Positions 4,808 to 29,483 are shown, counted from the first letter of the stretch. The stretch is 64,000 nucleotides of DNA from Nitrospiraceae bacterium (GCA_037442105.1 JBBIQV010000011.1:1-64000); one strand, 5' to 3'. The notes: generated by a model from the letters alone, not told the origin. Numbers and translations are program-made.

Positions 4808-6142
4808 TCATTCCGCCGACTTAGCCGCGCGATCGGGGACGAGGATCAAGAACCACGGCGGGGCTTCCTCCACCATATTCCGAAACATGCGAGCAGTGCT
4901 GCTGGCCGGGATGTTTTCGAAGGTCGCCCCCCGGCGTATCTCGACGTGCCGAAACCGGTACAAGGATGTATAGCCGACTGACTGATCGAGGACATGAGGC
5001 AGATCGGCTCTGATTTCGGCCACGTCGGCTAGATGCAGTGAGCCGCCGATGGGAAGCCGGCTCAGTCGCTGATAGACCTCGCCAAAGAGGGACGGAAGCA
5101 TTGAAGGAACTAGAATCTGGTTGGCAGGCCTGAACCGCGCGTCGGCGAGTAACTGCGACAGAATCTCCCAGAACACCTGCCCATCCACGGCGCCTAGGAC
5201 ACAGAGCAAGCCGCGGCGCGAGAGAAGGTCCAACAGAGCAAGGGGACCACGGATCTCAAACTTCCAGGGAGGAAAGAGTAACGAGCGGCCACTATATTGC
5301 ACCTCCAGGGCATGTTCTCCGCTCACGCGCGTCTTCCAAAAGGCCCCTTTGGTACGCCGGAGATCCTCGTGAATGAGCTCCTGCGACAAACGGGTCGGTT
5401 CGTAAGCGAAGGTCGGTGTGGCCGGAGCCCAACAGGTGGCAATGGTATAGCGGGGTGCGAGGCTGCCAGCTCGATCAAGCTGGTCCAGATCGAACATGTC
5501 TCGGTTGCCGTAAAACCGGAACTGCGCGCCGGCACGAGCGCGAAGTTGCGACAACCGGGCCGCGTCCGGATGGAGCGGTCCACCGAGTTTCGATCCCGGT
5601 GCCAGCCGATCCACACAATGGAGGATCAGCTCTTTGTGACGCGCTTCGAGTGGAGGCCCATAGTGGTCGGTTAGCTCGGCAGCGAACGAAAGGTCTCCCG
5701 CACCAAGGTCGAGCACTGAGGCTACGTCCGCCTCTAACAACAGATCGAAAGGATTCCGATGACCCTGCGCGAACTGCTCCGCCTCTATTGAGGTCAGTTG
5801 AGAGACGGGAAACGAAGGAATCGTGCGATCAACCAAACCGAATAGCACACACAACGCTCGCACCGCCTTCGTCGGTGGAAAGCCCGTCAATTCCTTGAGC
5901 TGTTCTCCGGGCAAGTCTTCGATGCGCCCGGCGAACCCTCGACCCAAGGCCCGGACCACCGTTTCCTTTAATGGGGCGGGCAGAGATGACTGCTGCACTG
6001 CAATGGCAAGCTGATCGAGCGTGCGGCGGATATGGGATGCGTCCACCAATTTGCGTGAAGCGTCCCATCGTGTATCTTCCGCTGTGCGGAGGTGAGTAAC
6101 CTGTCGCCGGAAATCGGCCAGGGTGTTCGGCTCGCGATCCAT
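4808..6142 (-). CDS. Hypothetical protein with a class I SAM-binding-like motif
   Basis: Long ORF with typical codon usage; motif SVLDLGAGD followed by LHCVD; start uncertain (6142 or 6205). Confidence 0.65.
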   Translation of the reverse strand: MDREPNTLADFRRQVTHLRTAEDTRWDASRKLVDASHIRRTLDQLAIAVQQSSLPAPLKETVVRALGRGFAGRIEDLPGEQLKELTGFPPTKAVRALCVLFGLVDRTIPSFPVSQLTSIEAEQFAQGHRNPFDLLLEADVASVLDLGAGDLSFAAELTDHYGPPLEARHKELILHCVDRLAPGSKLGGPLHPDAARLSQLRARAGAQFRFYGNRDMFDLDQLDRAGSLAPRYTIATCWAPATPTFAYEPTRLSQELIHEDLRRTKGAFWKTRVSGEHALEVQYSGRSLLFPPWKFEIRGPLALLDLLSRRGLLCVLGAVDGQVFWEILSQLLADARFRPANQILVPSMLPSLFGEVYQRLSRLPIGGSLHLADVAEIRADLPHVLDQSVGYTSLYRFRHVEIRRGATFENIPASSTARMFRNMVEEAPPWFLILVPDRAAKSAE

Positions 6143-6279
6143 GCTGGGGACTGACTCACTTTCAGTAGGCGGACAAGAAGCTCCACAGAGCGAATGCGGC
6201 AGCATACCGGCGAGGGGGAAAGTGCGTCAAGGATAGGGCTTGCTGGGAGCCCAGGCGTATGTTAGGTAGGAATCCGATC

Positions 6280-7290
6280 ATGAAACGGACGCTGCGGTCC
6301 ATCGTATCAAAAGTGCCGGCAACGGGCTTGGTGGGATGTGCCTTATTCTGGCTGTCGATGGCGGCCTGTTCCGGCCGAGCTTCGATGGCGGTTGCTTCAC
6401 TGGAGGATGTTCAGGCCGCGCGAGAGTGGGATGTCATTCAGACGAGCACCGGCCGCCTTATGCCGATGGAACAGTGGTTGGACGAACTCGCGCAGCAGGA
6501 GGTGGTGTATCTTGGCGAGGAACACCATAATCGATTCCATATTGACGCGGCCCGCAAGATCCTGGACGCCCTGCTGGCACGAGAGCGGGTACCGGTGATC
6601 GCCATTGAAATGTTCGGGTGGGATGGGCAGGCTGCACTGGATCGCTATCTTGCCGACCCAACGTGGACAAGGATCGAGTTCCTTGAGCAGTCCCGTTGGA
6701 AAGAGAATTGGGGCGGTCCGTTCGAAGACTACGAACCGTTGATGACGTTCGCCAGAGACCATCGGTTAGCGGTGCAGGCGCTGAACCCTCCGCGTCAATT
6801 GGTACGGCGTGTCGCTAAACAGGGGTTGATCGAAGCGAAAACCGATCCCGGAATGGTTCAGTGGGGGATGAAGGACGAGCTGATCATCGATGATCCAACC
6901 TATCGAGCAACGATCCTCAGACAGCTTCGTTTGTGCCACGGAGGCGGATCAGATAGCGATTATTCCGCCATGTATGAAGCCTCCCTGTTTCGGGACGAGG
7001 CGATGGCGAAAACGGTTGATGAGGCGCTGCGAAGGTTCCGCGTCACAACCGGCTCGGGGACCGGGCCGGTGTTCAGTTATACGGGTGGCGGGCATATTCA
7101 GTATCAGTTGCCGGTCCCCAAGCGCGTGGCGCGCCGACGGCCTGATGGCGTGCGCCAAGTGACCGTGTATATGACGTCCTTTCAGTCCGAACGGCGGGAT
7201 GAAGCCGCGGAACTCGTCCGGGATCGGATTGCGGATTATGTATGGCTCACGCCTCTCAGTGCGCAAGGACCACCGCGCCGGTGCCGATAA
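6280..7290 (+). CDS. ChaN/PhuW-family heme-uptake lipoprotein
   Basis: Lipobox-like MAAC; VVYLGEEHH, IAIEMF, LFRDEAMA and YTGGGHIQY motifs. Confidence 0.85.
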   Translation: MKRTLRSIVSKVPATGLVGCALFWLSMAACSGRASMAVASLEDVQAAREWDVIQTSTGRLMPMEQWLDELAQQEVVYLGEEHHNRFHIDAARKILDALLARERVPVIAIEMFGWDGQAALDRYLADPTWTRIEFLEQSRWKENWGGPFEDYEPLMTFARDHRLAVQALNPPRQLVRRVAKQGLIEAKTDPGMVQWGMKDELIIDDPTYRATILRQLRLCHGGGSDSDYSAMYEASLFRDEAMAKTVDEALRRFRVTTGSGTGPVFSYTGGGHIQYQLPVPKRVARRRPDGVRQVTVYMTSFQSERRDEAAELVRDRIADYVWLTPLSAQGPPRRCR

Positions 7291-9368: not shown

Positions 9369-9398
9369 TCCTTCCATACGATTACATCCGCGATTCGG

Positions 9399-9439
9399 CC
9401 CCGCCTGATCCGCCCACCGGCCAGGCGGGGAATTTTATT
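9399..9439 (+). terminator. Putative intrinsic terminator
   Basis: CCCCGCCTG...CAGGCGGGG stem followed by AATTTTATT, between convergent genes. Confidence 0.6.
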
Positions 9440-9453
9440 CTGAGCCCCCCACT

Positions 9454-10230
9454 TCAAAGTGCTCGCACCTGCTTCTTAAGCAGAGGCTGGAGCGCCTTTA
9501 ACACAGTCTCAGCCACAACCTGGTAGCCTTCTGCAGTCGGGTGAATCCCGTCAGCCTGATTCAGGGATGGCTTGGCGGCCACACCTTCGAGCAAGAAGGG
9601 AATCAGCGTTACTCGATACGTGCGGGCCAAGTCGGCATACAGCGCTTCGAATTGCGTCGTGTAGTCGAGCCCATAATTGGGCGGGAGCTTCATCCCAGCC
9701 AGCACGACGGTGACCTTCTGGGCTTGGAGCTGCCGGATGATCTGCTCCAGATTCGTGCGAGTCTCCATGAGGCTCAAACCTCGAAGCCCGTCATTACCAC
9801 CCAGTTCGAGGATGACGACTGAGGGCTTGCTGTTCAGCACCCAAGCCACCCGCCGGAGCCCACCCGCCGTCGTGTCGCCGCTGACTCCTGCATTGACCAC
9901 CAGGTAAGGATAACCTGCCGCATCCAACCTCCGTTGCAGTTGAGCTGGATATGATTCGTCCGGTGCGACCCCTAAGCCTGCGGTCAGGCTATCGCCGAGT
10001 GCGACAATGCGTAGACGCTCCGCAGAAGGCTGAGCCCCCGACCGACCCCGCTCTGTCGTGACATCGGTTCCGAAACGTTGCTCCAACCTGTCTCGATGTT
10101 GACCAGCCTGCGGTGGTACGGAGGAGGGGGGCGAGTTCTGGTCGCAACCGAAGAGAATCATCGCGAAGAAGCAAGCAGACGGGAGCCGCAGCCAAGGCGG
10201 GCTTATGAAAATCCTCAAGCGGCTCATCAT
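9454..10230 (-). CDS. SGNH/GDSL arylesterase / acyl-CoA thioesterase (TesA-like), lipoprotein
   Basis: GDSLTAG, NAGVSGDT, LGGND and DGIHP blocks; lipobox LFGC; divergent from the ybbA-like gene. Confidence 0.92.
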   Translation of the reverse strand: MMSRLRIFISPPWLRLPSACFFAMILFGCDQNSPPSSVPPQAGQHRDRLEQRFGTDVTTERGRSGAQPSAERLRIVALGDSLTAGLGVAPDESYPAQLQRRLDAAGYPYLVVNAGVSGDTTAGGLRRVAWVLNSKPSVVILELGGNDGLRGLSLMETRTNLEQIIRQLQAQKVTVVLAGMKLPPNYGLDYTTQFEALYADLARTYRVTLIPFLLEGVAAKPSLNQADGIHPTAEGYQVVAETVLKALQPLLKKQVRAL

Positions 10231-18369: not shown

Positions 18370-19071
18370 TCATACCCTCGCGGCAGGCCTGGTCTCGACG
18401 CCGGTCGGAGTTCCCACAATCAAGAGATGGGCACGCCCCACAAACAGGCCGGTCTCGACGATGCCGGGAACTTGATTGAGCTGAGTTTCCAGCCGGGCCG
18501 GGTTGTCGATCCGCGCGATGTGCAGGTCCAGAATGAAGTGCCCCGCTTCGGTTCTGAACGTCTGGCCGTTGCGCTCCCGCAGCGCGGCCTTCCCGCCGGC
18601 CACTTCCTCGATCTGGCGCGCTGTGCTGCCCCAACCGAACGGGATAACTTCAATGGGCAGAGGAAAGGAATTTCCCAGGGCCGGCACGAGTTTGGTGTGG
18701 TCCACGACAACGATGAATTGCTTTGCCGACGCGGCCACGATTTTTTCTTTGAGGAGTGCTCCCCCCCCGCCTTTAATCAAATTGAATTGAGGGTCAACTT
18801 GATCCGCGCCGTCGATGGCGACATCGATAACCCAGGCGTCATCCGTTTCAATCAGCGGGATGCCGTGCATCTGAGCGAGCTTGGCGGTCTCGTGGGAAGT
18901 CGAGATGCCGCGAATCCTCATGCCGGCCCGGACTTTTTCCCCAAGGGCAATGACCATATGTTTGGCAGTCGAACCGGTACCAAGCCCCACGACCATCCCG
19001 TCACGGACGTATTCCGCTGCTTTCAGAGCTGCGGATCGCTTGAGACTGTCAAGGTCTTGAGTCACCGTCAT
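18370..19071 (-). CDS. rpiA: Ribose-5-phosphate isomerase A
   Basis: VGLGTGST, IDGADQVD, IKGGGGALLKEK. Confidence 0.97.
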   Translation of the reverse strand: MTVTQDLDSLKRSAALKAAEYVRDGMVVGLGTGSTAKHMVIALGEKVRAGMRIRGISTSHETAKLAQMHGIPLIETDDAWVIDVAIDGADQVDPQFNLIKGGGGALLKEKIVAASAKQFIVVVDHTKLVPALGNSFPLPIEVIPFGWGSTARQIEEVAGGKAALRERNGQTFRTEAGHFILDLHIARIDNPARLETQLNQVPGIVETGLFVGRAHLLIVGTPTGVETRPAARV

Positions 19072-20150
19072 GATGACACCGCATGAGCTAGCTGCGCAGC
19101 GACCGATGCCGCTCCGAGCAGGGCGGTCTTGTCGTTCATCACCACCTTGACCGGGATCGTGCTCATCATGCGTTTGTATCGGCCTTTATTGGTGAAGGCC
19201 TTCATGAACGTCCCGTCCTTCAGCTTGGCGAGCAATTTCGGCGCGATGCCGCCGCCGATAAAGACACCGTCCAGCGCCATGGCTTTGAGCGCCAGGTTGC
19301 CAGCCTCCGCTCCATAAATTGAGGAAAAGAGTTCCAGCGCTTGTTTGGCGATCTCCGCTTGGCCCTTCAAGCCCGCCTCCGAGATGGTCGCCGCGGGATC
19401 TTCGATCTTGATTTTCTCAGCCAGCCATGTCGGCTCGTTTTTCTTGGTATCGCGCAGATAGTCGTAGATGGCGTGAAGGCCGGGCCCCGAGAGCACTCGT
19501 TCATAACTGACGTGCAGATAGCTGCTTCGCAAATGGCGCAAGAGCTCGATCTCGCTATCGCTGTTGGGGGCGAAGTCCGCATGGCCACCTTCCGAGGGCA
19601 TCGGTTTGTACCGTTCCCCATCCCAGAAGAGAATGGACTCGCCCAGGCCGGTGCCGGCTGCGATGAGGGCCAGCGCTTGTTTTTTTTTGGGAGGGGTTCC
19701 GGCGTTCAGCACTTCCACTTCTTCCGGCCTAAGAAGCAGGATGCCATAGGCGGTGGCCTCGAGATCGTTGAGCAATTGGACCTTGGGGATAGAGAACTGT
19801 TTGGCAATTGCCAGGCCATCGACCACCCAGGGAAGGTTGGTGGTGTGGCAACGGTTGTCGATGACTGGGCCGGCCACACCGAAGCAGGCGGCATCGATCT
19901 TAATCGGCTCCGTCAGAGCGGCAGCCTTCGGCCGCTCCCTTTCCGAGGGAGGTGATTCCTCTACACTCTCCTCTTCCTCGATGGGTTGCGGTGAAGCGGG
20001 CGGAGTCAGAAATTCCTCGACGATCTCCTCCAGTGATTTGTAGTCCGCACTGTGAAAACTCTGCGCCCGCGCCGGGTCTACCCTCACGCTCGTCCAGTCG
20101 AACAGAGCGAGGTTCGTTTTCGTACCCCCAATGTCTCCAGCGAGAATCAT
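19068..20150 (-). CDS. glk: Glucokinase
   Basis: LAGDIGGTK, LNDLEA, GTGLG, SEGGH, GGGI. Confidence 0.95.
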   Translation of the reverse strand: MILAGDIGGTKTNLALFDWTSVRVDPARAQSFHSADYKSLEEIVEEFLTPPASPQPIEEEESVEESPPSERERPKAAALTEPIKIDAACFGVAGPVIDNRCHTTNLPWVVDGLAIAKQFSIPKVQLLNDLEATAYGILLLRPEEVEVLNAGTPPKKKQALALIAAGTGLGESILFWDGERYKPMPSEGGHADFAPNSDSEIELLRHLRSSYLHVSYERVLSGPGLHAIYDYLRDTKKNEPTWLAEKIKIEDPAATISEAGLKGQAEIAKQALELFSSIYGAEAGNLALKAMALDGVFIGGGIAPKLLAKLKDGTFMKAFTNKGRYKRMMSTIPVKVVMNDKTALLGAASVAAQLAHAVSS

Positions 20151-20930
20151 TTATTCCTCTCGAGAGTTCATGCCTTGTCGACTCACCGTCAGGTCCATCG
20201 CTGCCGCCTGATCAAGGAACCAGATCAATCGTCCCGAGATAGGACGGACGAGCGATGCCGGCCATGATGGCCCACCAGCCGCTGAATTCTCAAGCACCTT
20301 CCGCGTGATGCCTGATTTTTTCTGACCGGTTACGAGAAAGAGTACCGCACCGGCGCGATTCAGAACCGGCAACGTGAGCGTGATCCTGGCCTGAATCCCT
20401 TTCGGCGACGTACTCGGCACCACCAGCCTGGTTTGCTCATCGAGCGCGCTTGTTCCAGGGAACAGGGAGGCCGTGTGCCCATCTTCGCCGAGGCCGAGCA
20501 GAATGAGATCGAATCGCGGGAGGGAGGAGTCGGAACCCGGCCATTCTTGACGCAACGTTTGTTCGTATTGCCGAGCCGCTGTTTCGGGCTGCTCCTCACC
20601 TTTCATGCGACAGATGTGATCGGACGCAATCTTGAGCGGCTGGAAGAGCGTGACATCTGCCATTCTAAAATTGCTCTCGGGGTGAGAGGGCGGCACGCAG
20701 CGCTCGTCGCCGAAAAAGAAGCGCACTTTCTTCCAGTCCAGGCGGTGGGCATATTCGGAGCTGGCCAGGGTCGCGTGGAGTGTCGCCGGAGTCGTTCCTC
20801 CGGCAAGCGCGACGCGGAACCGCTCGGTTGCGGCGATCGCCTGCTCGCCAAGCCAGAGAAAGAGTTCCGCCGCTTCGCGCGCCAACTCGTTCGCGTCTCG
20901 CATGATACGAATTTCGCGCGCGTGGGTCAT
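20151..20930 (-). CDS. pgl: 6-phosphogluconolactonase
   Basis: LAGGTTP, FFGDERCVP, LLGLGEDGHTASLFP, RITLT. Confidence 0.95.
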   Translation of the reverse strand: MTHAREIRIMRDANELAREAAELFLWLGEQAIAATERFRVALAGGTTPATLHATLASSEYAHRLDWKKVRFFFGDERCVPPSHPESNFRMADVTLFQPLKIASDHICRMKGEEQPETAARQYEQTLRQEWPGSDSSLPRFDLILLGLGEDGHTASLFPGTSALDEQTRLVVPSTSPKGIQARITLTLPVLNRAGAVLFLVTGQKKSGITRKVLENSAAGGPSWPASLVRPISGRLIWFLDQAAAMDLTVSRQGMNSREE

Positions 20931-20931
20931 G

Positions 20932-22638
20932 TCATCGTCTCGCCGGTCGGCGGGGCCGTTTCGTTCGCTTGGTGCGGGCTGGCCGGCTGGGCTTGGCCCG
21001 GGGCCGCAAGCCGTCAATCAACGCATGGATGGTGTCAAGAGGCCGGGTGCCGAGCTTCACGCGTATTGCCTGCCGACTGTGGGTACGAAGCGATTGGAGA
21101 TCGCCGACTGCTTGTGCTTGTGCCAAGGTACCGAAGGAATAGGGTTTGCCGGGGATTGGCAGGTCGGATACCATCTCTTCGACCAGTTCCAGGAACCGGC
21201 CGGCGTTCGATCCACCCTTGTGCAACTGGCCGGTCGAATGAAGGTACCGTGGGCCATAACCGCTGGTGGTCGCCAGCTTGGTGGAGGTCAACACGATCTT
21301 TCGCAACGACTGCAGCGCCGCGTCCATGCGAGGCGAGGGCGTCGCATAGGCTAGGATCGCGAGATACCGGCCCGGCTGGATGTTGCTCGCTATCTGTTTA
21401 GCCGCTTGGGCCGGAGTCGCGCTCGGCATCATCGGCAGTTTCCCGCTTGCTTCGACTTGCTGCAGGACACGCTGGGTGTTGTCTTTACTCTCCTGGACGT
21501 TCGGTTGATCGAAAGGGTGAATGCCGAGAAAATGGCCTGCGACCGCGGTGGCGAATTCCCACCGGAAAAACTCGGCACCGAGATCGTACCGATCCTTTAA
21601 GGCAAGCCGCAAGACCGGCTGCCCGGCTTGCTCGATTGCGCGCACCTGCCGATCGGTCGTAGCATTGGCATCGCCGGCTAATCTCAGATAGACGAAGAGT
21701 CGATCATCGCCGTAGGCAGACGGCTTGGCCAACGGCTCTTCCGCGATCGGCACGAGGCCTTTACCTTCCTTGCCGGTGCTCTCCGCAATGAGTTGCTCCG
21801 CCCAGAGACCGAAGGAGCTGATCTTTGGTGAAGCGACAATCGTGACCTTATCACGACCGGTTCGCCATAGTGCTCCCATCATCGCCCCCAAGGAGACTCC
21901 GGGGTTGTCGCGTAGCGGAGCACGGTGGCGGCAGGCGGCTGCCATGGTGCAGGCGCGGTCGAGCAGAGCAGCGACGTCCATCCCGATCAAGGCGGCCGGA
22001 ACCAATCCGAAATACGACAGGACGGAGTAGCGCCCCCCGATGTCGGGCGGATTAGTGAAGGTCTGCCAAAAGCGATAGTCGCGCGCCATTCGTTCGAGCC
22101 CGGTTCCAGGGTCTGTGATCGCGATAAATTGCATCCCGCCCCCCGCACCGCTGGTTTTATTGACCAGTTCCCAGAAGTGCGCGAAGAGCGACATGACTTC
22201 GATGGTACCGCCGGACTTGCTGGCGACGATAAAGAGGGTCCGCGCTGGATTGATGGTGTCCGTTACCTGACGCACGAAGCCGGGGACCGTCGAATCGAGC
22301 ACCCACAGGTGGGGAAATCCGCGAGCAGAACCAAAGGTGCAGCGGAGGACTTCGGGACCCAGACTGCTTCCGCCCATGCCCAGCAGCACGACGTCTTTTA
22401 CGCCTTGCCGACAGACGGATTGGGCGAACGTGCGGAGCTCGGCGACGTTTTGTCGCATCTGGTCCGCCACCGTGAGCCAGCCAAGCCGGTTCTCAATCTC
22501 CGTCGGTTCCGGTTTCCACAGCCTATGGTCTTTTGCCCAAACCCGGTCGACCAGGCCGGCTTGAGCCAACTCGCCGAGCGCGGCAGTTATTGTGGAATCA
22601 TAGGCATTGCTGTTCGACCGGCTCCGTGAAGCCACCAT
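20932..22638 (-). CDS. pgi: Glucose-6-phosphate isomerase (type found in Tal/Pgi fusions)
   Basis: LGMGGSSLGP, SKSGGT, IGGRYS, EQLIAESTGK, FDQPNV, YLHSTGQLHKGG. Confidence 0.88.
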   Translation of the reverse strand: MVASRSRSNSNAYDSTITAALGELAQAGLVDRVWAKDHRLWKPEPTEIENRLGWLTVADQMRQNVAELRTFAQSVCRQGVKDVVLLGMGGSSLGPEVLRCTFGSARGFPHLWVLDSTVPGFVRQVTDTINPARTLFIVASKSGGTIEVMSLFAHFWELVNKTSGAGGGMQFIAITDPGTGLERMARDYRFWQTFTNPPDIGGRYSVLSYFGLVPAALIGMDVAALLDRACTMAAACRHRAPLRDNPGVSLGAMMGALWRTGRDKVTIVASPKISSFGLWAEQLIAESTGKEGKGLVPIAEEPLAKPSAYGDDRLFVYLRLAGDANATTDRQVRAIEQAGQPVLRLALKDRYDLGAEFFRWEFATAVAGHFLGIHPFDQPNVQESKDNTQRVLQQVEASGKLPMMPSATPAQAAKQIASNIQPGRYLAILAYATPSPRMDAALQSLRKIVLTSTKLATTSGYGPRYLHSTGQLHKGGSNAGRFLELVEEMVSDLPIPGKPYSFGTLAQAQAVGDLQSLRTHSRQAIRVKLGTRPLDTIHALIDGLRPRAKPSRPARTKRTKRPRRPARR

Positions 22639-22745
22639 AGCATTCCTCCATCAGACTGTAGGGTGGATATGAGAGAGCCAGCAACGCTGTCGTATCTTAG
22701 GTCCGACCCGCTGAAAACGCAAACGCGACAGGATCGCCCTGCCCC

Positions 22746-23390
22746 CTATTCTTTATCGGTTGTTCGGCGGATGAGTAAAGGCATACCCTCGGTGACAGAC
22801 CAGGCCAGCGACTGCGCCTCCTCTGCTCTGAGGGTGAGTCGAATGGCTGGCGGAGCGGTCGCGCTATTTCCTGAGAGAAGTGCGGTGATCCCGTTTCGGA
22901 ACGATGTCCAATAGTTCAACGCCATCGTGAGGAGCCATTGCCAGGGATTCTCGCGGGCGATGGGGAGAACGCGGATGACCAAGGGCGGCTGGAACTGGAG
23001 GTCGAACGCCACGGGCATGTCTTTGAGAGAAATAGGCTCTTGCTCTTGGTTTTCAGTTGGGACGGCCTTGCGTCGGACGATAGGAGGGCGAGCCACAAGA
23101 CGAAACACCCCTTTCATCCGGCGCTCATCCGTTGTCCGGCAGTCGAGGACCGGCAACCGGTGGAGATCGAGGCCCCGCCCTTTGATGAGAATGGCCTGAG
23201 TCGGCAGGTCCAAAATCAAGTAGGGTTGTGGCCGGCCGGCCAGTTTCAGCTCCTCTTCGAGGACGCGGTTGGCCTCTCGCAGCGTGGCAGGGCTGTCCGA
23301 GTCGAGGCCGTTCCTGGCTGGCGGTTCGGATGAGAGAATAACGGACGGGTGAACAAGGAACAGGAGGAATATCGCGCAGAGAAATGTCAT
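22746..23390 (-). CDS. Secreted protein resembling a degenerate YkuD/L,D-transpeptidase fold
   Basis: Signal peptide; PYLILDL and VTEGMPLLI parallel PYIVVDT and AKIGTPIMI of the neighbouring LDT; no HGC motif. Confidence 0.6.
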   Translation of the reverse strand: MTFLCAIFLLFLVHPSVILSSEPPARNGLDSDSPATLREANRVLEEELKLAGRPQPYLILDLPTQAILIKGRGLDLHRLPVLDCRTTDERRMKGVFRLVARPPIVRRKAVPTENQEQEPISLKDMPVAFDLQFQPPLVIRVLPIARENPWQWLLTMALNYWTSFRNGITALLSGNSATAPPAIRLTLRAEEAQSLAWSVTEGMPLLIRRTTDKE

Positions 23391-23415
23391 GAAGTCTGCG
23401 CTGACGAGGCGGGTG

Positions 23416-24045
23416 TCAATAGATCATGATCGGCGTGCCGATCTTTGCGACTTGGTAAACGGCCTTGAGGTCCTGGTCGTTCAGGCGAATGCACCCGTGG
23501 GTCACATTTTTCCCTAAGAGACGGGTGTAGAGGGTGCCATGGATGAAGTACCCCTTGCCGAAGCCGAGGGCGTATTCCCCGAGCACGCCAGGTTCCACGC
23601 GCTGGGCTAGGCTGCGGGGGACTTCCTCTCCTTCTTCGATGAAGGCCCAGTCCGGCTTCACCCAGACCGGGTTGGTGAGTTTGGATTGAACGGTAAACTC
23701 GCCCCGGGGCGTGTCGAAGATCCACTGGCCACTCGCTTCACCGGGTTTATCGAGAAGTGTGCCGCTCCCGGTTGAAGCAATGGCATCAAGCACCACCTGT
23801 CCATGGCGCTTCACGTAGAGATGATTCCGCGCAGTGTCAACGACGATGTACGGGCCCGGGGGGCTGAGCTGCGCCAACTGGCGTTGTAGCGCCAGATTTC
23901 GCGCACGCAGGCTTTGGAGGGTTGAGGCATCGATCGGCTCCGAGGTGATGAAAGAAGCATCAGAGTCCTGCAGCCCGCTGCTTTGCGACAGCGTCAGCAA
24001 CAGGAATGCTGTGGATATCAGCAGGAGAGCCGAAGTGCGTGTCAT
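23416..24045 (-). CDS. L,D-transpeptidase (YkuD family)
   Basis: Signal peptide; TPRGEF, FIHGT...VTHGCIRL. Confidence 0.93.
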   Translation of the reverse strand: MTRTSALLLISTAFLLLTLSQSSGLQDSDASFITSEPIDASTLQSLRARNLALQRQLAQLSPPGPYIVVDTARNHLYVKRHGQVVLDAIASTGSGTLLDKPGEASGQWIFDTPRGEFTVQSKLTNPVWVKPDWAFIEEGEEVPRSLAQRVEPGVLGEYALGFGKGYFIHGTLYTRLLGKNVTHGCIRLNDQDLKAVYQVAKIGTPIMIY

Positions 24046-24052
24046 TGCGACG

Positions 24053-25195
24053 TCAGGTTTCTTCTTCTTGATCCCCTATATCGGCCAGCGCGAGCGCAAC
24101 GGCATTTTGCGAATGGAGGGCCCCCACAATCGTGATAGGAGTTCCCATCTCCACCAACGCGAATAGTTTCTCCATCTCCGGGTTGTCCAACATAATGCAG
24201 CCCAGAGTCTGGCCCATCAACTCGTTCTCGACTCCATGAATCTCGATCTGCCCGCCGATGTTGCGCTCCAACGGGATACGGCCGGCCTTTCGCGCGAGCT
24301 TGAAGCGGCGCCGGTCGTTGGCATTGGGATAATCCAGCACCAAGGCACGATAGAACTGAGTGTGCCCCTCACCTCGCTTGTGCGTAATGTGATATTGCCC
24401 TTCAGGTGTGGCGCCGTCCCCTTGGTATCGCTTTTCGCGGATGCCGTTGTACCCTAAACGAACGGGGTATGATAGCACTTTCCGCCCGTTTTTGTAGAGG
24501 GTCAGAATGCGGTCCGCCTTGCTCACAATGATTGCCGAAGCGTGGTGTGCGCGCGACCACTGGATCGTTCGACGGGCCATAGCACGCCAGGCGTTAATCC
24601 GATCTTGGTCCGCGTACCGTCCCAATTCACTGTTCAGTGTGGCCCGTTGGGCCCCTAACAGTTGGGCGGCATGGTCTGCGGAGTTGAGTGCTCGCGCGAA
24701 TTGCCCCTGGTCAAAGAAGGATCGCGCTTGCTTGACCAGCAATTCGGTCTCGACGGGTTTGTGGCCTAACACCAGGCGCCCGTCGATCTCGACGATCTTC
24801 GTGTTCATCGCCTGCAAGCGCTGCTCGACACGGTTTAACCGTTCCTCTGCCGTCAGCCGCTGGCTGTCTTTACGGTGCGCCACCTCGAGGGCCGTTCGCG
24901 TCCCTTCCTCGTGCAAGTGGCGTAGATCGGTTTCCAGCCGATTCGGTTCCCACGGCCATCGAATCAGATCCTCGTCCGCCTGAACCCTGGCCTTCAGCGC
25001 TACCCACTGCCGGGCGAACCGCGTGTATTCATCGGGGGCGAATTCAGCGGCCCGCTCGGCGACGAGGTCGCGGTCTAGGCTTTCTAGTGCCTCGACGAGA
25101 TCTTCTGGAATCGTCTGAACGCAGCCCGACAAGCTCGTGAGAGTGAGGACAGTGATGAGCGTCAGAAGACGGGATATCGGAAGGGCCAGGCCCAT
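24053..25195 (-). CDS. L,D-transpeptidase lipoprotein with N-terminal helical/coiled-coil domain
   Basis: Lipobox LSGC; GDGATPEGQY, IEIHG...TLGCIML. Confidence 0.9.
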   Translation of the reverse strand: MGLALPISRLLTLITVLTLTSLSGCVQTIPEDLVEALESLDRDLVAERAAEFAPDEYTRFARQWVALKARVQADEDLIRWPWEPNRLETDLRHLHEEGTRTALEVAHRKDSQRLTAEERLNRVEQRLQAMNTKIVEIDGRLVLGHKPVETELLVKQARSFFDQGQFARALNSADHAAQLLGAQRATLNSELGRYADQDRINAWRAMARRTIQWSRAHHASAIIVSKADRILTLYKNGRKVLSYPVRLGYNGIREKRYQGDGATPEGQYHITHKRGEGHTQFYRALVLDYPNANDRRRFKLARKAGRIPLERNIGGQIEIHGVENELMGQTLGCIMLDNPEMEKLFALVEMGTPITIVGALHSQNAVALALADIGDQEEET

Positions 25196-25210
25196 GATAA
25201 TTATTGTATC

Positions 25211-25840
25211 CTACTTCCCCTTTTTCGGCTGAGAATGTTTGCCTTTCGCCGCACTGATCTTTGCGAGCGCATTCTGGATCTCGGTTGAAACCGCCTGGCT
25301 CTTCTCGTGAATAGCCTTGGCTTTGGCCTGTGCCGCCAGGTAATCACCTCCATCGATCGCGGCTTGGACTTCGCCGAGCGACTTGGTGAGCCCCTCTGCG
25401 TCGGCTTTGATGGCTTCTAGGGCGGCGCGATCCTTGCCGACAGGAGCTTTTGCGACGAGCTCTTGGGTGGCCTTCACCGCTTCTTGAGCAACCTGCAGGG
25501 TTTGAAGAGCCGCCGTCTTGGCTTCTTCTTTTTTCTTCTCCGCCTCAGCCTTCACGCGCTCGGCCTCGGCCTTCGTGCTGGCTGCCAACTGCTCAGCTTT
25601 TCCATAGTCGCGCAGGAGAGTAAACTTTGCGTCTTGGTCAGCCACTTCTTTCTTGGCGTTCGCCAACATCCCCTCCAGTTTCGCATAGTCCTGAGGTGTG
25701 TAGGCGGTGGCGCCGCTTTGCTGGGCGTCTTTGACTGCTTTCTCTGCTGTATCGATCTGTTCTGTCGGGGGCTTGGCACAGGCGGCCAGTAAGAGCAGCA
25801 TGACCGCGGCGATCCCCCTCACATGGATTGTAGATTTCAT
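25211..25840 (-). CDS. Ala/Lys-rich coiled-coil lipoprotein (DUF4398-like)
   Basis: Lipobox LAAC; helical heptad composition; ends in KKGK. Confidence 0.85.
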   Translation of the reverse strand: MKSTIHVRGIAAVMLLLLAACAKPPTEQIDTAEKAVKDAQQSGATAYTPQDYAKLEGMLANAKKEVADQDAKFTLLRDYGKAEQLAASTKAEAERVKAEAEKKKEEAKTAALQTLQVAQEAVKATQELVAKAPVGKDRAALEAIKADAEGLTKSLGEVQAAIDGGDYLAAQAKAKAIHEKSQAVSTEIQNALAKISAAKGKHSQPKKGK

Positions 25841-25959
25841 GACCTGTCCTCCTGACGAAGAGGGAAGAGTGCTCCGTTCAGCTATTCCTCCCCGCCTCCT
25901 CCCCGCCGTTCGTTTTTTTGGGTTACAGCCGTAAGCTTGCTTATCTACCGAGTCGGAAT

Positions 25960-26009
25960 GGGAAAAACCGGCGCCCCTTCAGAAGCCCTACACCGGCATG
26001 AAGGGGGCC
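25960..26009 (-). terminator. Putative intrinsic terminator after the Lys-rich small-protein gene
   Basis: GCCCCTTCA...TGAAGGGG stem, with a T-run following on the minus strand. Confidence 0.5.
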
Positions 26010-26037
26010 AGTAGGCTGTGAGGGACTGGAACGACGT

Positions 26038-26289
26038 TTATCCCGCCTTCTTTTCCTTTCCCTTCTTCTTGCCGTGCTTCTTTCCCTTCTTGTCCTTCTT
26101 TTCGCCTTTTTCCCCTTCGGCTTTCTTTGCTCCTTCAGCCGGAGCAGCAGGAGCTGGAGCCACGGCAGCCGGTTCAGCCGGGGCAGGGGCCGGAGCAGCC
26201 GCCTTCTCCTCAGCCTGGCTCAGGGATGCAACGCCAAAAACCATAGCCATTGTAAGCGCCATCACGTTTAAAATTGATTTCGCCATCAT
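26038..26289 (-). CDS. Small secreted low-complexity protein (Pro/Ala linker, Lys-rich tail)
   Basis: 83 aa; strong RBS AAAGGAGGTG; signal peptide ending SQA. Confidence 0.85.
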   Translation of the reverse strand: MMAKSILNVMALTMAMVFGVASLSQAEEKAAAPAPAPAEPAAVAPAPAAPAEGAKKAEGEKGEKKDKKGKKHGKKKGKEKKAG

Positions 26290-26385
26290 CGTGTCACCTC
26301 CTTTCTGCAAAATGGATTATATGAGTCATCTTGACTCCTTAAGCTGGTTCCTACGCCACCAATGAAAAAGAAAGCTGATGCAACC

Positions 26386-26400
26386 GCAATGTTGGTGCCA
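26386..26400 (-). promoter_or_regulatory. Sigma-54 (-24/-12) promoter
   Basis: Minus strand TGGCAC-CAACA-TTGC. Confidence 0.75.
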
Positions 26401-26660: not shown

Positions 26661-26689
26661 TTGACACCCCGGCTTGCCATATCTATAAT
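26661..26689 (+). promoter_or_regulatory. Consensus sigma-70 promoter of the rpmH operon
   Basis: TTGACA-17 nt-TATAAT. Confidence 0.9.
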
Positions 26690-26730
26690 GCCCGGTTGAA
26701 TGATTGTGCAATTCCAGGAGGAAAGTTTCA

Positions 26731-26868
26731 ATGTCCTTTACGTATAAGCAACCGTCGAATCTCAAGCGGAAGCGCGAACATGGGTTCCGTAAACGGATGA
26801 GCACGAAGAACGGACGAAAAGTTCTTGCTCGCCGACGTGCTAAGGGGCGTGCTCGGTTGACCGTGTGA
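26731..26868 (+). CDS. rpmH: 50S ribosomal protein L34 (not in the ORF track)
   Basis: Translates to [54 protein letters not shown]. Confidence 0.97.
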
Positions 26869-27094
26869 GTCGTGCCCAAGCCGCAGCGGATTTCTCAATT
26901 CAGATCGATCAATTCCAGTCACAGATTAATGAACGCTTTTCGGCGGGTGGTGTATACCGTGGGACAAGCGCGCAGTGACTGCCTGCTCGCGGGAAGGGGC
27001 TGACTCTGGCGCCATCTGCAGGGCGAGCATTCACCGCACCGGCTGACGTGTGGAGCGAACACTCCAGCGTTGCCAATGTACTGATTTCTAACGC

Positions 27095-27457
27095 ATGGCT
27101 GTGGCGCATAGGCATGTGGACTTCTTTCTGCGGAGCAGCCGCGACATCGAACGAGTGAAGCGAACCGGTCGCCGGGTTTCGACGGCGTTTTTTAATCTTC
27201 TCGTGTGCCGTTCGGACAGGCCCGACAGTCGATTGGCCATCATCGTCGGCAAGCGGTTCGGTACGGCTGTCCGTCGCAACAGGGCAAAACGTGTGTTTCG
27301 GGAGCTTGGCTGTAGAGTCCGTCCCGCGTTACTGCCGGGGTTGGATTGCCTCGTGTTTCCCAAGCGTGAGGTCTTGAGCCAGTCTTTTGCAGTCCTCCAA
27401 GATGCCTGGGTGTTAACCTTGCGACGACAAGGGCTTTTGAGCTCTGAAATGGCATAA
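27095..27457 (+). CDS. rnpA: Ribonuclease P protein component
   Basis: VGKRFGTAVRRNRAKRVFRE RNR motif; synteny. Confidence 0.93.
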   Translation: MAVAHRHVDFFLRSSRDIERVKRTGRRVSTAFFNLLVCRSDRPDSRLAIIVGKRFGTAVRRNRAKRVFRELGCRVRPALLPGLDCLVFPKREVLSQSFAVLQDAWVLTLRRQGLLSSEMA

Positions 27458-27459
27458 CC

Positions 27460-27669
27460 ATGCGACGGCTCTGTCTTTGGGTCCTTGCCCTGTATCGGCA
27501 ATGGATATCACCGGCTCTCGGTCCTGCATGCCGCTTTGAACCCACGTGCTCTCAGTATGCGAGTGATGCCATTAGCCAGTATGGCCTCCTGGGAGGTATA
27601 GGGTTGACCTGCCTCCGCCTCCTCAAGTGTCACCCCTTTCATCCCGGCGGGGTCGATCCAGTGAAATAA
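27460..27669 (+). CDS. yidD: Membrane protein insertion efficiency factor
   Basis: CRFEPTCSQY...KCHPFHPGGVDPV. Confidence 0.95.
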   Translation: MRRLCLWVLALYRQWISPALGPACRFEPTCSQYASDAISQYGLLGGIGLTCLRLLKCHPFHPGGVDPVK

Positions 27670-27704
27670 GTCCTGCAATCGGACGGTCTAAGGTCGCACA
27701 CCGC

Positions 27705-29483
27705 ATGGAAAAGCGCGTCGTCATCTTCCTCATCATCTCGTTGACCATCATTATTGGGTACGACTATGTCCTCAAGGAACTCGGGCTCTTGCCACAACCT
27801 TCCAAGACCCAGGAGTTGGGAAGCTCCGAACCCTCAACTCCTGTTCGTTCGGATTCCGGACAACCCCCTACTTCGGTGGGCATTGCTGGCCAACCCGGCA
27901 CCTCGCTGAATCGAGAAGCCACTACTGAACAGAGTCACAGGAACCAGGCGGGTGGAACTGCATTGGACGAACAGACGGTGCAGGTCGATACGACTCTCTT
28001 CCGGGCCAGTTTTACCAATCGCGGCGCGGTGGTGAAGAGCTGGGAGTTGAAACGATACTACGCCAGCGCTTCTGATGGGCAAAAACTTGTTCAACTGATC
28101 AACCCGGAGACGAAGTTTCGCCGACCGCTGGCATTGACCGTAGAGGATCAAGCGCTGACGAAATTGCTTGGTGAGGCCTTGTACCAAGTTGAGCGGGATT
28201 TTGAATCGTTGGACTCCATGCATCCAAGCGGACATGTGACATTTCGGTTCGCTGATCCCGACCGGAAGCTGTTGATTGAGAAGCAGCTTACCTTTCACCA
28301 CGATAGCTATGTGGTAGATATTGCTCTCAAGACCGAAGGCCTGACGGGGCCTTTCGATATCGGCCTGGGGACCAATTTCGGCATTGTGGAATGGGGTGAA
28401 GGGTTTATCGGCCTGATCGGTTCCGCCTCGCTGGTTGATGGAAAGGTTGAAAAAGAAACACCGGACACGGAGTCTGAACGAAAAGGGGCTGTGCGATGGG
28501 TAGCACTTCAGGACAAATACTTCCTGAGCGTCCTGATGCCCAGTCGCGCATCGTCCGCGTTGGCCAAGAAAGAGGGGGATAAGTTGGTCTCAGCCGGTGT
28601 ACGAATGGCGTCCCCAGGCGTTGGCCCGGCATTGACTCTGAAGTTGTTCGCAGGTCCCAAGGAGTATGACACGCTGAGGGCCCTTAATGTGGGCTTGGAA
28701 GATACGATCGACTTTGGATGGTTCATCTTTGGAAGCTGGAGTTTCGTCAAGGCCGTGGCGAAACCGATTTTTTATGTGCTTCGGTTCCTTCATGACTACA
28801 CCCACAACTACGGGCTCACCATCATCCTGTTGACGGTGGGGATCAAACTGCTGTTCGTCCCGTTGCAGTATAAGAGTTACAAGTCGATGAAGCAGATGCA
28901 GGTGATCCAGCCCAAAGTGCTTGCGCTGCAGACCAAGTATAAGGATGACCGCGATCGGCTGAACAAGGAGCTCATCAAGCTCTACCGCGATCACCGGGTG
29001 AATCCGGTGGGAGGCTGCTTGCCCATGGTGCTCCAGATGCCGGTGTTCGTCGCCCTCTTTAATATCTTGTATATGACGATCGACTTGCGGCAGGCTCCAT
29101 TTACCCTATGGATCAAAGATCTCTCCGTTCAGGACCCGTACTATGTGCTTCCCCTCGTGATGGGAGCCACCATGGTGATTCAACAGAAAATCACGCCCAC
29201 CACGATGGATCCCACCCAAGCGAAAATCATGTTGATCCTCCCCGTGTTCATGACTTTCCTCTTCATCACCTTTCCTGCTGGCCTGGTGCTGTACTGGCTC
29301 ACGAATAACGTGTTGACGATTGGGCAACAGATCATCACGGATCGCTACATCCTCGGAAATCGTCCCATGCTAGCGACCTCTTCAGGGTCTGATACCGGCG
29401 AGGTAACCCTTGCCGAAGGAGGCTCGTCGGGAAAGCGGCGGAAGGTGTCGGCTGGTTCCACCGAAGGCGGAGAGCAAAGCTAA
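27705..29483 (+). CDS. yidC: Membrane protein insertase
   Basis: FTNRGA, NPVGGCLP, LWIKDLS, GLVLYW. Confidence 0.96.
   Translation: MEKRVVIFLIISLTIIIGYDYVLKELGLLPQPSKTQELGSSEPSTPVRSDSGQPPTSVGIAGQPGTSLNREATTEQSHRNQAGGTALDEQTVQVDTTLFRASFTNRGAVVKSWELKRYYASASDGQKLVQLINPETKFRRPLALTVEDQALTKLLGEALYQVERDFESLDSMHPSGHVTFRFADPDRKLLIEKQLTFHHDSYVVDIALKTEGLTGPFDIGLGTNFGIVEWGEGFIGLIGSASLVDGKVEKETPDTESERKGAVRWVALQDKYFLSVLMPSRASSALAKKEGDKLVSAGVRMASPGVGPALTLKLFAGPKEYDTLRALNVGLEDTIDFGWFIFGSWSFVKAVAKPIFYVLRFLHDYTHNYGLTIILLTVGIKLLFVPLQYKSYKSMKQMQVIQPKVLALQTKYKDDRDRLNKELIKLYRDHRVNPVGGCLPMVLQMPVFVALFNILYMTIDLRQAPFTLWIKDLSVQDPYYVLPLVMGATMVIQQKITPTTMDPTQAKIMLILPVFMTFLFITFPAGLVLYWLTNNVLTIGQQIITDRYILGNRPMLATSSGSDTGEVTLAEGGSSGKRRKVSAGSTEGGEQS

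Follow-up and report, generated by a model that had tools for sequence, protein, structure and literature searches.

Covalent lipoprotein tethers between the outer membrane and the cell wall are textbook biology, and how, if at all, the outer membrane is covalently fixed in most other diderm phyla is the question addressed by the gene cassette described here. The window that was analysed, a stretch of 64,000 nucleotides from a Nitrospiraceae bacterium (GCA_037442105.1 JBBIQV010000011.1:1-64000), contains five co-oriented open reading frames (ORFs) on the minus strand at 22746-26310, in agreement with an earlier sequence-only reading of this DNA. They were named g1 to g5 in their 5' to 3' order on that strand, and the genome of the window was named G000. 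The first, g1 (26038-26310), encodes a secreted protein of 90 residues with a signal peptide, an Ala/Pro-rich stretch and a poly-Lys tail (18 Lys, no Arg). The lipoprotein at the centre of this study is g2 (25211-25840), which has 209 residues, the LAAC lipobox with Cys21, and a C-terminal tail, ...KGKHSQPKKGK, that ends in KKGK as described before. It is followed by a second lipoprotein of 380 residues, g3 (24053-25195), with an LSGC lipobox and a C-terminal YkuD domain (221-356), by g4 (23416-24045), a secreted canonical L,D-transpeptidase (LDT) of 209 residues with the motifs IHG...THGCIR (Cys185 at 23491-23493), and by g5 (22746-23390), a protein of 214 residues with an N-terminal signal or anchor and a predicted YkuD-like fold that lacks the catalytic Cys and His.

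The spacing between g2 and g3, g3 and g4, and g4 and g5 is 15, 7 and 25 bp, respectively, and a terminator-like hairpin lies 3' of g5 (22725-22737). In contrast, g1 is set apart from g2 by 197 bp that include another such hairpin (25973-25986), although these hairpins are consensus matches, of which 6 were found compared to 4.7 +/- 2.2 in shuffled sequences. Four of the five genes, g2 to g5, form a conserved cassette, and g1 is a peripheral gene outside it that probably has its own transcript. Reading the sequence directly, a Shine-Dalgarno-like AGGAGGA (25847-25853, minus strand) is found 6 nt upstream of the g2 start codon, and no comparable motif precedes g3, g4 or g5, from which we infer that the g2 product may be made in excess of the enzymes. 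The cassette offers candidates for a substrate, an attaching enzyme, a releasing enzyme and an adaptor.

The cassette and its products

Mature g2 counts 189 residues, of which 43 are Ala, 28 Lys, 18 Glu and 3 Arg. The first three make up 47%, which is well short of the near-total share given in the sequence-only reading. The protein is helical, as stated there, but is not predicted to form one coiled coil of heptads. An AlphaFold2 model based on 39 homologues (predicted local distance difference test, pLDDT, 88; predicted template modelling score, pTM, 0.71) shows helices at residues 26-41, 49-70, 80-131, 138-163 and 167-200, followed by a disordered basic tail (201-209) of low confidence, and its turns are located at LRDYGK and APVGKDR, the non-helical motifs with the highest conservation. 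When this model was used in an exhaustive VIA-align search, 4fm3, the crystal structure of the DUF4398 protein PA2901, ranked first (g2 residues 22-124 against 4fm3_A, Z 11.7, root mean square deviation (rmsd) 2.9, 93 of 95 residues), and the second half of the model matched three-helix bundles. Foldseek found no match to the model in the PDB at E <= 0.001. Based on the helices and the structural matches, g2 is predicted to be a rod in which two three-helix bundles have one helix of 52 residues in common, rather than an uninterrupted coiled coil of heptads. The idea of a long coiled coil that sets the width of a wide periplasm was rejected on the basis of this two-bundle model and the DUF4398 match. 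From the order of the five helices, the lipid anchor would be found at one tip and the C-terminal tail at the other. The rod would measure approximately 8 nm, which is about the length of Lpp, and judged by helix lengths the earlier suggestion that this ~190-residue mature protein is longer than Lpp does not hold.

The DUF4398 model itself (PF14346) scores 21.2 bits on g2, below the Pfam cut-off of 27.9, and precomputed PF14346 annotation exists for P0088, P0106 and P0107, which are close homologues. In 90% clusters, 975 homologues were found at E <= 0.001. Among 50% cluster representatives, the g2 profile gave 1394 matches at E <= 0.001, of which 698 reach E <= 1e-10. Public sources label g2 relatives 'DUF4398 domain-containing protein', and some of the profile matches are named Acidobacteriota DUF4398 proteins by their sources. 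G000 also encodes a second Lys-rich g2 paralogue (23 Lys, 3 Arg) at G000:C5:72335-72922 (6132-6935 of locus L111), with two OmpA-domain genes 2.5 and 4.8 kb downstream of it (9389-10198 and 11769-12536 of L111). This genome has ten OmpA-domain genes. Such paralogues are present in G092 (L129) and G116 (L130) as well, with no LDT within 6 kb.

Both g3 and g4 had been called YkuD L,D-transpeptidases. The YkuD domain is clear in both (73.5 and 81.9 bits, respectively, against a Pfam cut-off of 23.4), but only g4 carries the transpeptidase motif, and g3 is of the hydrolase type. The g3 motif, IHG...TLGCIM, keeps the His and Cys333 (24197-24199, minus strand) and has a Met at the position where transpeptidases have Arg. 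This GC.M motif is found in 74 of 76 cassette orthologues, and more distant cassettes show TYGCI[S/A/G] or TDGCVA. The best solved relatives of the g3 profile are 8ikr (E 4.6e-11), which we take to be DpaA, followed by 7o21 (6.9e-10), 4xzz (5.2e-7) and Pgp2 (1e-5), presumably LD-carboxypeptidases, and canonical LDTs rank below these at ~7e-5. Published work assigns SxGChR to transpeptidases and SxGChA to the lipoprotein-releasing enzymes DpaA and LdtPae3 (PMC10434034), and the use of a missing Arg as a mark of the hydrolase type also draws on PMC12729407. Because of its motif without Arg and its nearest solved relatives, g3 was placed in the hydrolytic, DpaA/LD-carboxypeptidase-like branch of the YkuD proteins, judging from sequence. 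It is not an equivalog of DpaA/YafK/LdtF, since it scores 31.8 bits with NF040599 against a cut-off of 365, and an LD-carboxypeptidase activity would be equally compatible with its solved relatives. The part of g3 that precedes the YkuD domain, residues ~15-181, is homologous to nearly the whole g2 rod (hhalign probability 98.1%, E 1.3e-13, 166 columns), and the g2 hidden Markov model (HMM) also matches g3 orthologues. BLASTP of g2 against g3 gave nothing, and the homology emerged from profile-profile comparison.

In g4, residues H169, H183, G184, C185 and R187 are invariant among 31 sequences from six families, and the protein combines the domain match with the His and a [ST]xGChR motif with its Cys and Arg, as in catalytic YkuD proteins. 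Among solved structures, the L,D-transpeptidase 4lzh is closest to g4 (E 9.5e-9). No YkuD genes other than g3 and g4 were found in G000 (86.7% complete), and g4 is its only canonical LDT. Pfam gave no match for the g5 of the window nor for any of 30 g5 members, and no column that is invariant or nearly so in these 30 sequences holds a Cys or a His. The first ~60 residues of g5 align with g4 (hhalign probability 91%, E 9e-7), and its AlphaFold2 model (pLDDT 83.9, pTM 0.75) gave 20 Foldseek matches at E <= 0.001, of which all those listed are L,D-transpeptidases. Thus, the third protein is related to the other two, as was proposed, and the model identifies g5 as an inactive YkuD-fold paralogue, i.e. 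a pseudo-enzyme.

Conservation and decay of the cassette

To describe the distribution of the cassette, contigs from one genome per species were used, in which 191 stretches encode a g2 relative, and the best 80 were kept. In all 80 Nitrospiraceae species loci g3 adjoins g2, and the order g2-g3-g4-g5 is present in 75 of them, while the other 5 break off inside g3 at a contig end. The flanks, identified from translations and tblastn markers, are a divergent rpmH-rnpA-yidD-yidC cluster on one side and the glucose-6-phosphate isomerase gene pgi on the other, and rpmH lies upstream of the cassette in 77 of the 80 loci. The cassette is also present in N. moscoviensis, a cultured Nitrospira, at L074. 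Nine loci come from five other families of the phylum, and seven of these have all four genes in the same order. Of the remaining two, one reaches its contig end after g4 and the other has a partial g5 match inside an ORF of 393 residues. A scan of metagenomes with a narrower g2 alignment gave 2 loci, with genomic context for L149 alone. This low-GC contig carries g2-like, g3-like and g4-like genes followed by an ORF of 267 residues, again in the same order, and the g5-like end of this ORF was recognised by eye and not by an HMM. The order of lipoprotein and LDT is kept across families.

Across the 301 genomes of the phylum, the g5 profile matched in 44. Of these, 43 also have g2 and all 44 have a g4 match, with E <= 1.4e-84 except for a fragment at a contig end of G183 (E 2.5e-54), and G183 is also the lone g5 genome without g2, its g4 and g5 being located at the contig end. 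In the family of the window, 34 of the 50 genomes have g2, 33 have g5, 33 have an ortholog-level g4, and 32 have all three. Outside this family g5 was found in 10 genomes, all with g2 (E < 1e-30) and g4 (E < 1e-84). A reduced cassette is present in G275 (L123), which belongs to another family of the same order. Here, a g2-like gene with 16 Lys and 10 Arg, ending in ...EKTQDRNP, is located beside a g4 orthologue, and there is no g3 or g5.

Decay of the cassette can be seen at a single syntenic locus, between rpmH and pgi, where four states were found. In the first, one genus has kept only g3, and g2, g4 and g5 are found in 0 of its 10 genomes (the locus was checked in 4). In the second, one genus has kept g2 and g3. 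A g2-like gene with an adjoining Pfam YkuD match is present in 5 of its 5 genomes, and in 4 of the 5 this match, at the place of g3, is the sole one. The g4 and g5 profiles were applied to 2 of these genomes only, and for the same 2 the identity of g3 and the layout of the locus (rnpA-rpmH, g2, g3, pgi) were inspected. In the third state, represented by G204 (L150), g3 is intact, g4 is in two fragments, and a gap of ~820 bp occupies the expected site of g2. In the fourth, G265 (L135), a g3 remnant of 47-49 residues with two TAG stops remains between rpmH and pgi. G204 and G265 show cassette decay in progress.

The pair of g4 and g5 is also found by itself. In family f13, a g5-like ORF directly follows the g4-like gene in all 6 loci examined. 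In L136-L141 a g4-like LDT of ~215 residues is followed by an ORF of ~175 residues with a g5-like C-terminus, ...YYALEEGALAYVIR, and the pair adjoins an ORF of ~455-466 residues that ends in ...LDPNNILNPGKIF, with no g2 and no g3 at these sites. The enzyme/pseudo-enzyme pair seems older than the cassette.

With regard to the surroundings of the cassette, the rpmH, rnpA, yidD and yidC genes of the window are located at 26704-29483 on the plus strand, and a perfect sigma-70 consensus, TTGACA-17 nt-TATAAT, lies directly upstream of rpmH at 26661-26689. Beyond the cassette, at 19068-22638 on the minus strand, translations were read as glucokinase-like, 6-phosphogluconolactonase-like and glucose-6-phosphate isomerase-like, and the isomerase gene is the downstream neighbour that is kept in most loci. 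The peripheral g1 has a strong Shine-Dalgarno motif of its own, AAGGAGGTGA. Judged by composition, g1-like ORFs occur at the same position, between rpmH and g2, in at least 27 of 77 Nitrospiraceae loci (L002-L015 and others), and tblastn with g1 gave a match in only 1 of the 80 loci. It matches the Asr model weakly (23 bits against a cut-off of 50), and may serve as another substrate with lysines, or as a polycation.

Lysines of g2 and a possible attach-and-release cycle

To follow individual lysines, 90 g2 sequences were aligned, consisting of the window, the 80 species loci and the 9 loci of other families, all with the cassette. Lys is present in at least 60% of the rows at 22 positions, and three of these, Lys72, Lys136 and Lys194, have it in every one of the 90 rows, with no Arg. 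In the genus that lacks g4 and g5 these three positions read Q, R and R. Lys136 (codon at 25433-25435, minus strand) sits in the turn A-P-V-G-K-D-R between helices 3 and 4, and within its AP-x-G-K motif it is Lys in 102 of 111 representatives of the wide family, which makes it the best-kept Lys and places it among the six best-kept columns, with 6 of the 9 exceptions being Arg-rich, Lys-poor proteins. It is a candidate for an internal acceptor lysine. Lys-poor g2 clusters include P0172, P0188, P0205, P0208 and P0209.

The same genus shows a shift over the whole protein. Mature g2 contains 2-4 Lys and 19-31 Arg there, compared to a median of 24 Lys (range 17-38) and 5 Arg in the 80 cassette orthologues, and 26-32 Lys and 1-5 Arg in the 9 distant cassettes. 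This is not genome-wide drift, since the adjacent g3 has 13-14 Lys and 35-40 Arg, close to the medians of 14 and 36.5. In g3, it is the catalytic Cys that has changed, and each of the two lineages without g4 and g5 has a Ser in its place (G-S). They have long stems and are not sisters in a quick maximum-likelihood tree of g3, and the 95% Shimodaira-Hasegawa-like approximate likelihood ratio test (SH-aLRT) set contains one Ser lineage and excludes the other, which suggests that the change occurred twice independently. On our reading, the g2 lysines and the catalytic Cys of g3 matter only where g4/g5 are present, as would be predicted by an attach-and-release cycle in which g4 links a g2 lysine to a stem peptide and g3 reverses or limits this link. 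These natural 'knock-out' lineages highlight the residues Lys136, Lys194 and the tail of g2 together with its Lys to Arg replacement, the Cys to Ser replacement at Cys333 of g3, and Cys185 of g4. The kept order, the joint loss, and the loss of Lys and Cys where the LDT is gone also support the functional link between lipoprotein and YkuD proteins that the sequence-only reading had drawn.

Given the observed gene set, domains, motifs, conservation and pattern of decay, we give an even chance to the interpretation that lysines of the g2 rod are joined covalently to peptidoglycan by g4 and released by the hydrolase-type g3. In this scheme g2 would be anchored in the outer membrane by Cys21, which assumes the sorting rule of E. 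coli, whereby Asp at position +2 marks inner-membrane lipoproteins. The far tip of the rod would carry Lys136, Lys194 and the Lys-rich tail, a placement that follows from the order of the helices and not from model coordinates. For g4, aided by the inactive g5, a tetrapeptide stem would serve as the donor and a lysine of g2 as the acceptor. Since g3 carries a copy of the rod, it would be set at the same depth as g2, where it might either hydrolyse the product of g2 and stem or trim the donor stems, making the link reversible. The rod of g3, the strong Shine-Dalgarno motif before g2 but not before the enzyme genes, and the lack of Lpp would all fit such a tether. A more specific version is tentative and less probable than not: a reversible tether, unrelated to Lpp, formed by two-bundle DUF4398 lipoproteins of Nitrospirota, Acidobacteriota and Bacteroidota, in which the link would be made at Lys136, at the tip remote from the lipid, instead of the C-terminus, g5 would direct g4 to this lysine, and g3 would cut.

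The C-terminus of g2 is where the attachment model meets its first difficulty. Of the 120 closest clusters, 102 end in Lys, as do 57 of the 80 species loci, and a Lys is located at most 2 residues from the end in 71 of these 80. However, in the other 9 the last Lys is 3-9 residues from the end, and among 129 full-length representatives of the wider family the termini are K in 37, R in 36, G in 11 and S in 11. The basic tail is thus conserved and the terminal Lys only partly. The earlier proposal had named poor conservation of this residue as an argument against itself, and to that extent the argument applies. Moreover, a C-terminal Lys is found in more than 20% of the periplasmic proteins and lipoproteins of E. 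coli, as quoted in PMC12274547. Further points weigh on the same side. The Lys to Arg shift is a single evolutionary event, as the association of Lys-poor g2 with absent LDT covers one genus of 5 species, and a single acceptor site would leave a replacement throughout g2 unexplained. The cassette is dispensable, with none of g2, g5 and intact g4 found in 15 of the 50 genomes of the family, among them G204 with its g4 fragments. The g2 paralogues mentioned above and the distant g2-like genes (L124-L128) have no LDT within 6 kb. In f13, g4-like genes are present in 58 of 64 genomes, with no match to the g2 or g5 profiles, so that g4, with g5, must have a role independent of g2. Finally, the outer-membrane location is itself an assumption, and the lineage of an LDT does not tell anchoring from cross-linking (PMC10434034).

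Several of these points are what one would expect of a module that remodels the wall without anchoring a protein, in which g4 with g5 makes 3-3 cross-links or exchanges D-amino acids, g3 trims tetrapeptides or cuts cross-links, and g2 is a non-covalent, membrane-anchored scaffold or regulator that acts through its rod and basic tip. We consider this possible but less probable than the tether. It is favoured by the g4/g5-like pair without g2 in f13, by the presence of Pgp2, 4xzz and 7o21, presumably LD-carboxypeptidases, among the nearest solved relatives of g3, and by the wider-family C-terminus, where Arg as frequent as Lys would suit an electrostatic role. The rod common to g2 and g3 could mean that the two pair, and the function of LDTs is not predictable from lineage (PMC10434034). 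Yet, a charge-preserving Lys to Arg replacement exactly where g4/g5 were lost is unexpected for a purely electrostatic role, as are three positions that are Lys and never Arg in all aligned rows, and its strong Shine-Dalgarno motif points to g2 as a protein with a structural, stoichiometric role.

That g2 has an independent role, as a periplasmic stress or ion-binding protein or as a spacer, and is merely co-transcribed, its lysines serving solubility or helix stability, appears improbable. The solitary paralogues in G000 and two relatives, the distant g2-like genes away from any LDT, and the neighbouring poly-Lys, weakly Asr-like g1 would agree with this, but the cassette keeps its order in different families and on a distant contig, the loss of g4/g5 goes along with loss or remodelling of g2, and g3 contains a homologous rod. 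We also give little credence to g2 as an inner-membrane lipoprotein in a system that ties the cytoplasmic membrane to the wall, as OutB does in Dickeya. The one point against it is that position +2 of g2 is Ala and not Asp, which counts only under the E. coli rule, and this rule may not hold in this phylum. In its favour, the same enzymes can anchor an inner-membrane protein (PMC12274547).

Comparison with known systems

By title, and among the matches listed, no description of the cassette was found in the literature on DUF4398, on LDT tethering, or on the periplasm and peptidoglycan of Nitrospira. The nearest structural relative, the DUF4398 (PF14346) structure 4fm3 of PA2901, has the same fold as the N-terminal bundle of g2, and g2 adds a second bundle and a basic tail to this family without known function. 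A two-bundle, spectrin-like shape as in g2 is also seen in the N-terminal domain of BB0323 from Borrelia burgdorferi (6rjx/6rjw; Z 10.3 over 158 residues) and in EzrA (4uy3; Z 11.0 over 170 residues), with rmsd values of 6.5-7.3 and 8-9% identity. For helical bundles a Z of ~10-11 may reflect the common arrangement alone, and from EzrA and BB0323 we draw no functional conclusion.

Attachment through a lysine that is not the terminal residue has precedents in LimB27 of Coxiella burnetii (Lys21) and Lpg1810 of Legionella (C-terminal Lys-Thr), as described in PMC12729407 and PMC11841132, and this is what a site at Lys136 or Lys194 of g2 would need. These proteins are unrelated to g2, their attachment has not been assigned to an LDT, and they have no conserved operon. 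In Pseudomonas aeruginosa, OprI, LdtPae2 for anchoring and LdtPae3 for release follow the same three-part logic as proposed here, with the releasing enzyme distinguished by its motif (PMC10434034). OprI is a member of the Lpp/OprI family and g2 is not, and in Pseudomonas the genes are not grouped into one four-gene cassette that includes a pseudo-enzyme.

The closest parallel is the E. coli system of Lpp, LdtA/B/C and DpaA/YafK/LdtF, which also consists of a helical lipoprotein with a basic, Lys-bearing end and YkuD enzymes of both types. Estimated from helix lengths, the rods of Lpp and g2 are of similar length. However, there is no sequence relation, as g2 scores 16.5 bits with the Ala_zip_lipo model NF040598 against a cut-off of 43, and the Pfam LPP model (PF04728) has no match across G000 and does match the E. 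coli control. Lpp is a trimeric zipper of 56 residues, whereas g2 is predicted to form two intramolecular three-helix bundles from five helices, and its terminal Lys is not strictly kept. The likeness of the enzymes lies in the SxGChR-type motif of g4 and in the absence of the Arg from g3, as in DpaA (PMC12729407 and PMC10434034). Lpp is restricted to a subclade of the Gammaproteobacteria (10.1101/2021.05.31.446380). Unlike in E. coli, all partners of the cassette are encoded in one operon, the hydrolase-type g3 has its own rod and lipid anchor, and there is an additional, inactive g5. The cassette is a concrete candidate for a tether in several large environmental phyla, among whose members are the nitrite oxidisers behind nitrification.

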